The notes: a model not told the origin generated them from the letters alone. A stretch of 64,000 bases of DNA from an uncultured Solirubrobacterales bacterium (GCA_963807385.1 CAWEBQ010000003.1:718426-782425), one strand, 5' to 3'. Counted from the first letter of the stretch, positions 43,505-47,683 are shown. A program made the numbers and translations.

Positions 43505-44359
43505 ATGACTACAGCCCTCTCAGATCTCCCCCTAATCGCCAGCGGCAAGGTGCGCGAGATGTACGCCGCGGACGACGACATCGTCATGGTCGCATCCGAT
43601 CGGATCTCGGCCTACGACGTGATTCTTCCGACCCCGATCCCAGACAAGGGGAAGGTCCTGAGCCAGATGTCCGTGTTCTGGTTCGAGACGACGGGGTCGA
43701 TCGTCCCGAACCACTTTCTTTCCCAGGAGGTTCCCGAGGAGGCCGAGGGCCGGGCCCTGCGGGTGAAGCGCCTTGAGATGTACCCGGTCGAGTGCGTCGT
43801 CCGCGGCTACATCACCGGGTCGGGATGGCGTGAGTACAAGGAGTCCGGGTCGGTGTGCGGGATCGCGCTACCCGAGGGCCTGCAGGAGTCGGACAAGCTG
43901 CCGGAGCCGATCTTCACCCCGGCCACCAAGGCTGACGTCGGCGACCACGACGAGAACGTCTCGTTCGAGAAGGCGGTCGAGATCGTTGGCAACCGGCCTT
44001 TGATGGAGGACCTCCGGCGAGTCTCGATCGAGCTCTACACCCACGCCGCCGAGCACGCGCTCGAACGAGGGATCATCATCGCCGACACCAAGTTCGAGTT
44101 CGGATCCACCCCCGGCGCCGAGGTGGTGCTGGGCGACGAGGTCCTCACCCCGGACTCCTCGCGCTTCTGGCCCGCCGACGACTACCAGCCGGGTCGCGGC
44201 CAGGACTCGTTCGACAAGCAGTACGTGCGCGACTGGCTCGACGAGACGGGCTGGGATCACAGTCCCCCGGGGCCCGAGCTGCCCGACGACGTGGTGGCGC
44301 GCACCCGCGCGAAGTACGTCGAGGCCTACGAGCGAATCACCGGGCGCTCCCTCGGCTGA
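43505..44359 (+). CDS. purC: SAICAR synthetase
   Basis: The ATG at 43505 gives [21 protein letters not shown]...SDRISAYDV...ADTKFEFG. Confidence 0.95.
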
Positions 44360-44381
44360 GCCGACCGCCGGGAGCACGGCT

Positions 44382-45011
44382 TTGGCGGTCCTCGCCGAGT
44401 TCGACCGCCAGCTCGCCACGCTGCTGGAGCGCGGCTACGCCGGCGCGGCGGGCCTCGACGAGGCAGGCTTTTTGGCCCGGCTGGAGCCACTTCGCGCGCC
44501 GGCCGCCTCCCTGGCCACCGAGGCCGACGCCGAGGCCGGGCGCTTCGGCTTCGTGCTCGTGCCGAGTCGGCCCCTGGTGCCGGCGGCGGCCGGGATCGGA
44601 CTCGTTGAGCGCCGGGGCAAGGCCGGATTCCTCGCGATGCTCGACGCACAGGACCTTGACCGGTTCGGCCCGATCGACGGCGTGAGCGAGCCCGACGCGC
44701 CGGCCTACCTGCTCGCCGACGTCTCGAGCGGCCGCGAGAGCCTGAACGTCACCCCCGACGCAGCCGTCGCGGCCCAACTGGAGGCGGGGCGCACGCCCCT
44801 AACTGTCGAGGAGGGCGTCGCGCTGGCCACCCAGTTCCCCGAGGCCGTCGCCACCAACGGCGGTTTCTCGCTGGCCGGCTCGCGCTGCGGCGACCGGCGC
44901 GTGGTCGCGCTCTGGATCAGCGGGGGGGCGCCGAAGATGGGCTGGTGCTGGGCCGGCAACCCGCACACCTGGCTCGGTACCGCCTCGTGCCGAGGACGCA
45001 TCGCCGCCTAA
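44382..45011 (+). CDS. Conserved-looking hypothetical protein
   Basis: 209 aa with a TTG start. Third positions are GC-rich, and it is tightly packed between purC and a sulfotransferase. The C-terminal GWCWAGNPHTWLG looks like a conserved block, but I cannot name a family. Confidence 0.55.
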   Translation: MAVLAEFDRQLATLLERGYAGAAGLDEAGFLARLEPLRAPAASLATEADAEAGRFGFVLVPSRPLVPAAAGIGLVERRGKAGFLAMLDAQDLDRFGPIDGVSEPDAPAYLLADVSSGRESLNVTPDAAVAAQLEAGRTPLTVEEGVALATQFPEAVATNGGFSLAGSRCGDRRVVALWISGGAPKMGWCWAGNPHTWLGTASCRGRIAA

Positions 45012-45021
45012 GCTCAGCGCC

Positions 45022-45957
45022 GTGAACCTGTTCGTCCAGGGGATGCGCCGATCGGGCACGACGATCCTCTACGACGCCCTGCTCGAGGATCGCGAGCTGC
45101 GCTCGTTCTACGAGCCCCTGCGCGAGCAGAAGGTCTCGGTCGGCGGCGGCAGCGGCGCGCGCACCGGGGATGCGTTCGGCGAGACCGGTGCGCTGCGCGA
45201 GGCGTTCCGCGCCGATCGGTACCCAAAGCTCGACATCTCCGAGTTCAACTGGGGCGGGCCACGGAAGCCCCCGCTCGAGGTGGAGCCCGGGCTGCCGGAG
45301 CACGCGATGGAGTGGCTGCGCCACCTGCTGGGCACAGCGCCCGCGGTTGCGATCAAGGAGACGCGCTTCTACTCGAAGGTCCCGGAGCTTGTGAAGCTCG
45401 ACGCCGATGCAGCGCTCGTCCACGTCGTGCGGGACCCCCGCGCAGTGGCGGCCTCGATCGTGCTCGGGCGAGGGCGGCGCCAGGCCGAGAGGCTGCCCGA
45501 CGCCGACGCCTTCTTCGCCGACCGCTCGGAGCGCAAGCTCTGGTCGTGCCGCCCGATCTCGCGGCGGCTGATCCGCAAGGGACTCGCCTCTGGCGCCGAT
45601 GCCGCCTTCCTCGGGGATCCGTCGAACGTCCTGCGCGTGCTGCTGGTATGGAAGCTGACCTTCGAGCGCACGTTCGCCGAGGGTCGGCGGCTCTTCGGCG
45701 AGCGCTACCGCCTGGTGCGCAACGAGGACCTGCGAGGTGATCCCGCCGCGGCGCTCGGCTCCGTCTACGGAATCCTCGGCCGCGAGGTGCCCGCGGAGGT
45801 GGCGGCGTGGGCCGCCGCCAACGTACGCGAGCCCGAGCCCGTCTACGCCGCGGGCGACCCGCGCTGGGCCGAGGAGCTGCGGCGGGCCGGCATCTCGGAC
45901 GGGGTGCTGGCCGACGCGGGGTATTCCGCGGACCCGGCGGGTACGCTGGGCGCGTGA
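45022..45957 (+). CDS. Divergent sulfotransferase-family protein
   Basis: The GTG start gives MNLFVQGMRRSGTTILYDAL (5'-PSB). It also has AIKETRFY...LVHVVRDPRAVAASI (3'-PB-like). The stop overlaps the purS start (GTGA). Confidence 0.72.
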   Translation: MNLFVQGMRRSGTTILYDALLEDRELRSFYEPLREQKVSVGGGSGARTGDAFGETGALREAFRADRYPKLDISEFNWGGPRKPPLEVEPGLPEHAMEWLRHLLGTAPAVAIKETRFYSKVPELVKLDADAALVHVVRDPRAVAASIVLGRGRRQAERLPDADAFFADRSERKLWSCRPISRRLIRKGLASGADAAFLGDPSNVLRVLLVWKLTFERTFAEGRRLFGERYRLVRNEDLRGDPAAALGSVYGILGREVPAEVAAWAAANVREPEPVYAAGDPRWAEELRRAGISDGVLADAGYSADPAGTLGA

Positions 45958-46214
45958 AGGCAACGGTCCTGATCCGGCCCAAGGAGGGCATCCTCGACCC
46001 GCAGGGCAAGGCGGTCGAGCGCGCCCTGCCGGCGCTCGGGTTCTCGGGCATCTCCGGGGTGCGCGTCGGGCGCATGGTGGAGCTCGAGGTCGAGGACGCC
46101 GACGACCTGCCCTCCCTCTGCGAGAAGCTCCTCGCGAACCCGCTGATCGAGGACTATGAAGTACTGCCTGATGCCTCCTCCGCTTCGCGTCCGGGGGCAT
46201 CAGGGTCCGAGTGA
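45954..46214 (+). CDS. purS: FGAM synthase subunit PurS
   Basis: The GTG at 45954 gives VKATVLIRPKEGILDPQGKAVERALPALGF..V..VRVGR..ELE. Confidence 0.88.
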   Translation: MKATVLIRPKEGILDPQGKAVERALPALGFSGISGVRVGRMVELEVEDADDLPSLCEKLLANPLIEDYEVLPDASSASRPGASGSE

Positions 46215-46879
46215 CATTCGGGGTCCTTCAGTTCCCCGGCTCCTGCGACGAGCGCGATGCGCTTGCGGCCTGTGAGCGCGCCGGTGAGGCGCGGATGGTC
46301 TGGCACGAGGACACCGACCTGTCCGGTATCGATGCCGTCGTCGTGCCCGGCGGCTTCTCCTACGGCGACTACCTGCGGGCCGGGGCGATCGCACGCTTCT
46401 CGCCGGCGATGGGCGCCGTCGCCGGGTTCGCCGCCGCAGGCGGGCCGGTGCTCGGGATCTGCAACGGCTTCCAGGTTCTGTGCGAGGCGGGCCTGCTTCC
46501 CGGCGCGCTGCTGCCGAACGAGAGCGTCCGGTTCCTCTGCCGCCAGGTCGATCTGGTGGTCGAGAACGCGGACACTGCCTTTACTCGGGAGTGCTCGGTC
46601 GGCCAAACCCTCTCGATCCCCGTCAAGCACATGTCGGGGCGCTATTTCGCCCCGGACGAGCAGCTCGACGCGATGCAGGCGAGTGGCCAGGTGGTCCTGC
46701 GCTACGCCACCGGCCAGAACCCGAACGGCTCGGTTCGTGATGTGGCCGGCGTGATCAACGAGGCGGGCAACGTCATGGGCCTCATGCCCCACCCCGAGCA
46801 CGCGGTCGACGAGCTCGCGGGCTCGGCCGACGGGCTCGCGCTGTTCCGGTCCATGGCCGCCGTGCCCGCCGCGGCATAG
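46211..46879 (+). CDS. purQ: FGAM synthase glutaminase subunit PurQ
   Basis: Contains FGVLQFPGSCDERD, VVPGGFSYGDYLR, GICNGFQVL and MPHPE. Confidence 0.95.
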   Translation: MTFGVLQFPGSCDERDALAACERAGEARMVWHEDTDLSGIDAVVVPGGFSYGDYLRAGAIARFSPAMGAVAGFAAAGGPVLGICNGFQVLCEAGLLPGALLPNESVRFLCRQVDLVVENADTAFTRECSVGQTLSIPVKHMSGRYFAPDEQLDAMQASGQVVLRYATGQNPNGSVRDVAGVINEAGNVMGLMPHPEHAVDELAGSADGLALFRSMAAVPAAA

Positions 46880-47683
46880 ATGGCCGAGGGCACGGGGCGC
46901 CCCCGGCAGCGCTACCTGCTCCCGATCCCTACCCCGGAAGCGCCCCCGGGGCAGGTGACCGGCCCGCCGGACCTGATCGGGATCGGGGCCCAGCGCGCCG
47001 GGACGACCTGGTGGTGGCGCGGCGCGGTCCGCTCTCACCCCGGCTTCGCCCGCGACGTAAAGCCCGGCAAGGAGCTCCACTTCTTCGACCGCTTCTGGGA
47101 CGGGCGCGAGGTGCCCTCCGACCTCGCCGAGCAGTACGCGCTCCAGTTCCCCAGGCCCGAGGGAAAGCTCACGGGCGAGTGGACGCCCCGCTACATGCAC
47201 GACTACTGGACCCTGCCGCTGCTCCGCGCCGCTGCGCCGGAGGCGCGGATCCTGGTGATGCTGCGCGACCCCGTCGCCCGCTACCGCTCGGGCATCGCAC
47301 GCGAGCTGGGCATCGCCGGGAAGGCGGGCGAACCCCTGGAGATCGCGATCGTCGGCGACGCCGTGTACCGCAGCCTCTACAGCTCCCAGCTCCGGCGCCT
47401 CTTCGAGCTGTACGAGCGCGAGCGGGTGTTGGTCCTCCAGTACGAGCGCTGCGAGGCCGACCCCCTGGGGGAGATGCGACGCACCCACGAGTTCCTGGGT
47501 CTCGAGCCGCTCACCGAGATCCCGGGGGACCTCGACCGGCAGGTGGGGACCGCCCGCGAGAAGGTTCGCCTGGCTCCACTTTTGGAGGCGGAGTTGGCCG
47601 GTCGCCTCACCGAGGACGCACACAGGACCAGCGATCTGTGCCCTGAGATTGACCTCTCGCTGTGGCCCAGCGTCGGCGGATAG
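46880..47683 (+). CDS. Sulfotransfer_1-type (heparan-sulfate-ST-like) carbohydrate sulfotransferase
   Basis: The ATG directly abuts the purQ stop. Blocks are IGIGAQRAGTTWW, KELHFFD, EWTPRY and ILVMLRDPVARYRSG, which align by eye with the GxxKxGT / HFFD / TPxY / LRDPxxRxxS blocks of animal HS 3-O/N-sulfotransferases. Confidence 0.8.
   Translation: MAEGTGRPRQRYLLPIPTPEAPPGQVTGPPDLIGIGAQRAGTTWWWRGAVRSHPGFARDVKPGKELHFFDRFWDGREVPSDLAEQYALQFPRPEGKLTGEWTPRYMHDYWTLPLLRAAAPEARILVMLRDPVARYRSGIARELGIAGKAGEPLEIAIVGDAVYRSLYSSQLRRLFELYERERVLVLQYERCEADPLGEMRRTHEFLGLEPLTEIPGDLDRQVGTAREKVRLAPLLEAELAGRLTEDAHRTSDLCPEIDLSLWPSVGG

Follow-up and report, generated by a model that had tools for sequence, protein, structure and literature searches.

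In the canonical purine operon the genes purC, purS, purQ and purL follow each other, for example within the Bacillus subtilis operon purEKBCSQLFMNHD. In Mycobacterium tuberculosis these genes are split by unrelated genes, with purC at Rv0780, purS/purQ at Rv0787A/Rv0788 and purL at Rv0803. Here, we describe the purC to purL region in a stretch of 64,000 nucleotides (below, the window) from an uncultured bacterium of the Solirubrobacterales (Thermoleophilia, Actinomycetota), where sulfotransferase (ST) and glycosyltransferase (GT) genes are found between the purine genes. Our reading, which we consider probable, is that the purC-purS-purQ-purL operon of one Solirubrobacterales clade received ST and GT genes by an old insertion, that these genes have been inherited vertically since then, and that they are passengers in what has become a mosaic of leaderless transcription units.

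The four pur genes of the locus keep the order and the shared strand of the canonical operon and of the contiguous form found in three relatives (G012, G018 and G019), and the GTGA overlap between purS and purQ is retained. However, compared with the contiguous form, a DUF5701 gene and a sulfotransferase gene, ST1, are present at purC|purS (1.6 kb), while 27 kb of unrelated genes separate purQ from purL. The string of pur genes in M. tuberculosis is split at the same two positions, likewise by non-purine genes. However, no sulfotransferase array is to our knowledge present in the M. tuberculosis region, and tight overlaps that embed ST genes, which are found here and in L061, are not known from there. 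Nor do we know of any sulfated-polysaccharide cluster that is embedded in a purine operon. A search of one literature library for a link between Solirubrobacterales and sulfotransferases found no paper, and a search for pur gene order in Actinobacteria found nothing relevant.

Gene order from purC to purL

The window covers C3:718426-782425 of a 2.75-Mb genome in five contigs that is 94.5% complete. Six genes on the plus strand form the core of the locus.

43505..44359, plus strand, purC (phosphoribosylaminoimidazole-succinocarboxamide (SAICAR) synthetase); NF010568, 430 bits
44382..45011, plus strand, DUF5701 gene; PF18959, 200 bits; TTG start, TAA stop
45022..45957, plus strand, ST1; Sulfotransfer_3, 41.6 bits (weak but significant); GTG start
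45954..46214, plus strand, purS; NF004630, 83.9 bits, match from residue 50 of the longest open reading frame (ORF); GTG start
46211..46879, plus strand, purQ; NF002957, 310 bits
46880..47683, plus strand, ST2; Sulfotransfer_3 and Sulfotransfer_1; ATG start

The start of purC is placed at the ATG at 43505 because the NF010568 match opens at residue 18 of the longest ORF. Reading the junction sequences directly, the successive gaps are 22, 10, -4, -4 and 0 nt, i.e., there is a GTGA overlap at both ST1/purS and purS/purQ, and the stop of purQ and the start of ST2 form the string TAGATG with 0 nt between them. The matches to Pfam and NCBIfam together with these junctions confirm the order and the gaps given in a first-pass annotation of the window. 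From purC through ST2 all genes lie on the same strand, the junctions are short or overlapping and no terminator signal rises above chance; in the region 42400-57200, 4 terminator-like sites were found against 2.9 expected.

The first-pass annotation also described purL as absent. This holds within the window, but not for the genome, as a full-length purL (TIGR01736, 828.8 bits) is found on the same strand at C3:792410-794569, window-equivalent 73940-76168. It follows purQ at a distance of 27.1 kb downstream, about 10 kb outside the window. The genes between ST2 and purL are, according to Pfam, the following.

47806..56537, plus strand, array of eight GT2/ST/GT4 genes that has a predicted leaderless promoter for itself (TACACT, 7 nt, ATG at 47806)
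56569..64000, no single strand assigned, further cargo in the window: SnoaL-like, TetR, beta-helix, MMPL and membrane proteins
Past the window up to purL, two peptidases, a hydrolase, 2 STs and a sulfatase

Of the 24 Sulfotransfer_3 matches in the genome, 13 fall within 46.5 kb (C3:743,980-790,511), a stretch that also holds purD, purE, purB, purC, purS and purQ. Neither Wzx/Wzy, an ABC exporter nor a priming transferase was found in the part of the locus that was annotated. Sulfatases are found on both sides of purL (window-equivalent 72326-73903 and 78026-79570), and sulfate-adding and sulfate-removing enzymes share one island.

The genome is metagenome-assembled, and a chimeric contig, or a binning error, could in principle join a glycan island to the pur genes. 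This explanation is hardly credible. The window is located inside a contig of 958 kb, and its G+C content of about 70-72% is nowhere below 67% or above 74% when taken per 2 kb, without a step at the edges of the island. Further, the same gene order recurs in dozens of genomes assembled independently in different studies, which excludes a misassembly and places the arrangement far beyond chance.

The ancestral operon and the descent of ST1

The purC-purQ and purQ-purL distances were measured in 30 relatives, both by coordinates and by direct sequence reading. In relatives from other families, purQ and purL are separated by 32-125 nt in 11 of 11 measurable genomes, and the distance between purC and purQ is about 260-330 nt, corresponding to purS alone, in 9 of 11. 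The exceptions for the latter are G029 (979 nt), G027 (4,133 nt) and G022, where purC is on a separate contig. The distances are likewise short in two genera of the same family, g4 and g10, and in g5 as far as the contig reaches. In G012, G018 and G019, purQ and purL overlap by GTGA (4 nt), and in two of these three genomes purC and purS overlap as well, by GTGA or TTGA. Ancestrally, then, purC, purS, purQ and purL formed one tightly coupled operon, and the inserts thus occupy two former coupling junctions, purC|purS and purQ|purL.

Within the genus of the window, purC and purQ are 1.2-2.4 kb apart, and the purQ-purL distance is 12.6-19.3 kb in the congeners and 27.1 kb here. In other genera of the family, purQ-purL distances of 7.3, 8.6 and 17.1 kb are found, while it is only 2 kb in locus L061. 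A contiguous operon outside the clade and variable cargo at the same two junctions inside it support the earlier proposal that the pur cluster served as a landing pad. The arrangement had also been called unusual, and this is true in comparison with bacteria in general, but within the clade it is the normal state.

To follow ST1 we used a profile-based scan with one genome per species, and the loci were annotated with the window's own proteins. At least 74 species-level Solirubrobacterales genomes contain ST1, and the loci are mostly from soil metagenomes. The orders around ST1 among the 74 loci listed are as follows.

64 of 74, purC, ST1, purS
3 of 74, purC then ST1 at the contig end
3 of 74, plus 1 truncated, purQ-GT2-ST1-GT4
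1 of 74 (L100), GT4-ST1-purC-purS-purQ-purL
2 of 74, other orders

The median gap from ST1 to purS is 12 nt across the loci listed. In an even sample of the family, ST1 is found in 45 of 151 genomes, which belong to 14 of 58 genera, always as one copy. Eight other members of the genus, in which the locus was found, have a single ortholog between purC and purQ; the copy in G006 is frameshifted, and G005 (65% complete) has none of purC, purQ, purL and ST1. Three other genera of the first sample also contain ST1, at 56-62% identity. The exact ST1 protein has no record in public assemblies.

ST1 and the pur genes have diverged together. The pairwise distances of ST1 correlate with those of purC+purQ (Mantel r = 0.77, p = 0.001, n = 49), about as well as purC does with purQ (r = 0.71), and ST1 has the higher rate of evolution, about 1.8 times that of the pur genes. 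The correlation between the identities to the query of ST1 and of the pur genes is weak (Spearman 0.09-0.3), as the majority of the loci lie at an equal distance from the query, and the all-pairs Mantel test was used instead. The co-divergence fits one ancient insertion followed by vertical descent.

The junctions themselves differ between lineages. Where an ST follows purQ, the two share 4 nt at the purQ stop in about 24 other species and 1 nt in 3 more, without a promoter hexamer (see below), while a GT directly after purQ often has a hexamer of its own. In 7 of 9 congeners ST2 adjoins purQ. The smallest extant form is found at L061:7722-12865, where purS-purQ-ST-GT4-purL are joined by 4-nt overlaps at every junction, and judged by these junctions the expression of purL would here run through the ST and GT genes alone. 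Only 4 of 31 related genomes contain a DUF5701 gene, which outside this species is never located at the pur locus, and no tblastn match to it exists in the 74 loci listed. A Shine-Dalgarno-like GGGAG stands 7 nt upstream of its TTG start, the predicted ST1 -10 box TAAGCT takes its first three bases from its TAA stop, and no remains of a mobile element are visible around it (window 44382-45014). As far as these comparisons reach, it is a species-specific insert between purC and the predicted ST1 promoter. In G001, two identical purQ-ST2 copies (C1:463494-464159 and C6:191417-192082) are located near the ends of two contigs; for this pair an assembly overlap is more probable than a true duplication.

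Sulfotransferases bind 3'-phosphoadenosine 5'-phosphosulfate (PAPS) through two motifs, a loop of the RRSGTT type and RDP...S. Both are present in ST1. In the phosphosulfate loop near the N-terminus (RRSGTT; xxRSGTT type), G7, R9, R10, S11, G12, T13 and T14 are invariant in 36 orthologs, and so are R137, D138, P139, V142 and S145 of the 3'-phosphate motif RDPxxVxxS. An AlphaFold2 model built on the ortholog alignment has a predicted local distance difference test score (pLDDT) of 90.7 and a predicted template modelling score (pTM) of 0.90. When this model is searched against PDB using Foldseek, 22 of the 22 matches with E <= 0.001 are sulfotransferases, the best being the mycobacterial Stf9 (2Z6V, E = 4e-6), and the fold matches also include tyrosylprotein sulfotransferases, the CurM ST domain and heparan-sulfate 3-O-sulfotransferases (3-OSTs). 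ST1 thus shares the fold and both motifs with PAPS-dependent sulfotransferases such as Stf9/Stf1 (2Z6V/2ZQ5), TPST1/2, CurM (4GBM) and 3-OST (1T8T). However, its identity to any solved sulfotransferase is only 14-18%, with template modelling scores (TM-scores) of 0.4-0.5, and ST1 therefore represents a divergent family of its own. By modelled fold and motifs ST1 is a divergent PAPS-type sulfotransferase with putative catalytic activity.

For ST2, the closest solved structure in a phmmer search of PDB is the heparan-sulfate 3-O-sulfotransferase 3A1 (1T8T, E = 1e-8). The alignment extends across the E-x-T-P-x-Y and RDP...S regions of 3-OST-3A1; the aligned regions are GAQRAGTT, GEWTPRY (versus EKTPSY in the region of the catalytic Glu) and RDPVARYRS, so that ST2 can be classified as a putative carbohydrate-type sulfotransferase. 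The genome has a gene for adenosine 5'-phosphosulfate (APS) kinase at C3:505191-505640 (219 bits), which makes a supply of PAPS plausible.

Given its place next to purS in 64 of the 74 loci listed, its single copy and its divergent family, one could ask if ST1 serves purine synthesis as an accessory or regulatory component, acting for instance on a purine intermediate or on the formylglycinamidine ribonucleotide (FGAM) synthase complex. We find this very improbable. ST1 is missing in 106 of the 151 family genomes and in every genome sampled from other families, where the purC-purS-purQ-purL operon is complete, and its fold and motifs are those of an ordinary PAPS-dependent sulfotransferase. 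Among the 30 relatives ST1 occurs only in those that also carry ST/GT cargo between purQ and purL, in four species it is located among the GT/ST genes downstream of purQ, between GT2 and GT4, and in L100 it follows a GT4 gene upstream of purC. This company points to a role in sulfation/glycosylation and not in purine synthesis. Most likely, the ST/GT genes make a sulfated, sugar-containing molecule of the envelope or for secretion.

Predicted leaderless promoters and transcription units

In M. tuberculosis, a TANNNT -10 motif has its centre 7-12 bp upstream of 73% of the primary mapped transcription starts, and 26% of those genes that have a primary start site are leaderless (PMC3898074). There, the hexamer of leaderless genes, often preceded by CGN, is found a few bases upstream of a start codon at which transcription also begins (PMC3898074), and we find the same hexamer at the same place in the Solirubrobacterales loci, where the promoters are predicted. 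Among the loci listed, TANNNT is found 5-10 nt upstream of the start codon as follows.

purC, 66 of 71
ST1, 56 of 73
purS, 69 of 71
purQ, 1 of 71
purD, 0 of 18

In other 6-nt windows up to 40 nt upstream the hexamer is found in 0-3 loci, and the background at start-like triplets is 1.4%. T1, A2 and T6 are fixed while the N positions vary, and CG typically precedes the hexamer, as in mycobacteria; this prefix is usual in the 64 distinct purS promoters of related loci. Within the genus, CTAAGCT is kept 6-8 nt upstream of the ST1 start whatever precedes it. The ST1 hexamer is missing in all five species where ST1 overlaps purC and present in 56 of the 66 with a gap, and the purS hexamer is present in all 14 species where ST1 overlaps purS. 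In G000, the genome of the window, TANNNT occurs 28-54 times per spacing at 6-10 nt from candidate starts versus 2-14 times at the other spacings tested, which suggests that a large set of genes in Thermoleophilia may be leaderless. About 190 TANNNT matches are found among 1,332 long ORFs of G000.

At the locus, the predicted signals, each placed exactly at a start that homology supports, are the following.

43485..43504, plus strand, predicted purC promoter (-10 TAGCAT, 7 nt, ATG)
45009..45014, plus strand, predicted ST1 -10 box TAAGCT, 7 nt before the GTG at 45022
45942..45947, plus strand, predicted purS -10 box TACGCT, 6 nt before the GTG at 45954, inside the last ST1 codons
Before the ATG at window-equivalent 73940, plus strand, predicted purL -10 box TAGATT, at 7 nt
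32570 (GT4), 38875 (CsoR), 43421 (GT-A-like gene, minus strand) and 47806 (GT2), other TANNNT signals at homology-supported starts

No TANNNT signal precedes DUF5701, purQ, ST2 or any internal gene of the eight-gene array. The purL box is seen here and in G009, while none was found in G016. The predicted purS box falls within the ST1 codons Gly-Thr-Leu (window 45942-45957), so that in this genus it is probably the promoter, rather than protein function, that constrains the C-terminal residues of ST1. A scan of 42400-57200 for sigma-70 promoters gave 0 promoters and is uninformative for this organism.

The position-specific hexamers before purC, ST1 and purS, with one here also before purL, suggest that the locus is probably a mosaic of short transcription units. 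The single operon of the first-pass annotation, which it had set against independent units with internal promoters, is not what the sequences predict, since conserved hexamers, i.e., predicted internal promoters, stand before ST1 and purS. The predicted units would be purC-DUF5701; ST1; purS-purQ-ST2; GT2 to ST (47806-56537); and purL. All units are on one strand without a terminator signal above chance, so read-through between them is likely. The proposal of the first-pass annotation that ST expression may be yoked to purine-biosynthesis transcription finds partial support in silico. The ATG of ST2 abuts the purQ stop and no -10 box is found in silico, so that ST2 is most likely on the purS-purQ transcript, but ST1, purS, purC and purL each have a conserved predicted leaderless -10 box of their own. 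Only the gene directly after purQ appears, from its junction, to be truly coupled to purS-purQ.

The following course of events can be proposed. An ST/GT cassette would have entered the coupled purQ|purL junction, where the first inserted gene took over the overlapping start, and ST1 would have settled at the purC|purS junction. The displaced purS, and in this genus purL, would then carry leaderless promoters of their own; in the larger islands, purL would have moved away and carry a -10 box of its own. As the genes downstream of the junctions are, by prediction, independently promoted, the junctions would tolerate further cargo, and the lineages have filled them differently. The ST/GT genes may gain steady transcription at housekeeping level from the pur genes, without any biochemical role in purine synthesis.

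Alternatively, the ST/GT genes could be kept in the pur operon by selection for co-regulation, if the making of their sulfated product has to track the purine/nucleotide status or the growth rate. The coupling to purS-purQ would in that case have a function and not be incidental. PAPS costs two ATP per sulfate, and its use releases 3'-phosphoadenosine 5'-phosphate (PAP). At least 74 species keep the linkage, the junctions being very short or overlapping, ST1 stays in the pur neighbourhood even when its exact position shifts among the loci listed, and purL of L061 is reachable only via the ST and GT4 genes. These observations speak for co-regulation. However, ST1, purS, purC and purL have predicted promoters of their own, the purQ|ST2 junction is broken in G007 by a reverse-strand sulfatase (L055:7838-9226) and in G009 by about 0.9 kb of extra DNA, and the cargo varies widely between the lineages (peptidases, TetR, MMPL). 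Further, no Rfam family, riboswitches included, reaches its gathering score anywhere in the 64-kb window (protein-operator sites were not searched), and most of the family and of the order live without these genes. We found no purine-specific regulatory link for the ST genes in the sequence, and consider selected co-regulation rather unlikely. The stronger idea that sulfation of envelope glycoconjugates is deliberately wired to the FGAM-synthase genes, with the ST/GT genes after purQ expressed in fixed proportion to purS-purQ, we regard as more doubtful still.

We return to the old, vertically inherited insertion with genes that are, by prediction, independently promoted. Several points weigh against it. 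The promoters and transcription units are in-silico predictions whose hexamer consensus is borrowed from Mycobacterium, while the host belongs to Thermoleophilia, and we know of no experimental demonstration of leaderless transcription in that class. The 74 species are phylogenetically related, so their counts are not independent events. The product assigned to the ST/GT genes is one that we infer. Finally, the tight junctions are long-lasting, as seen in the median of 12 nt between ST1 and purS and the recurrent -4 between purQ and ST, and could reflect selection for co-expression.

The neighbouring pur block and the meaning of the locus

Upstream of purC a second group of purine genes is found.

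34075-35355, plus strand, purD; Pfam GARS_N/A/C
About 35327-35887, start uncertain, plus strand, purE; Pfam AIRC
35824-37179, plus strand, purB; Pfam Lyase_1 and ADSL_C

The first-pass annotation placed a purD-purE-purB block at 34075..37179, with a GT4 gene upstream and P450, CsoR and ST genes downstream, in full agreement with Pfam. The block is found upstream of purC in most of the 74 loci listed. As listed, the purE ORF overlaps purD by 29 nt and its AIRC domain opens only at residue 58, so the true start of purE is probably further downstream. A 93-residue ORF with high third-position G+C (33772-34053) lies between the GT4 gene and purD.

Between purB and purC, a P450 and a 100-residue CsoR-like repressor are encoded on the minus strand (37227-38875), and the pair is kept at this position in many of the 74 loci listed. 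The CsoR gene has a -10 box of the leaderless type (TATAGT, 7 nt, GTG at 38875). CYP126 is a neighbour of the pur genes in M. tuberculosis, and the P450 was considered as its counterpart; this was rejected, as a sequence search of PDB gives CYP51/CYP120-like matches and no CYP126.

The locus is not a new kind of system and provides no new mechanism by itself; what it offers is a neat case of how operons evolve, and a useful guide for annotating an understudied lineage. If sulfation were wired to the purine genes, central purine metabolism and envelope chemistry would be linked in a way not described before, in a soil lineage that is abundant but uncultured, where the capacity for nucleotide synthesis and the sulfation of the cell surface would be controlled together. 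The Solirubrobacterales are common soil bacteria, and very little is known about them. The locus gives a clear example of a coupled housekeeping operon that has been invaded at its overlap junctions and still works, where the newcomers would inherit the coupled start and the displaced genes would depend on their own predicted leaderless promoters. It also provides testable predictions of transcription units and start codons for a lineage without transcript maps, and it marks ST1 as a conserved, single-copy and structurally confident family of uncharacterised sulfotransferases.

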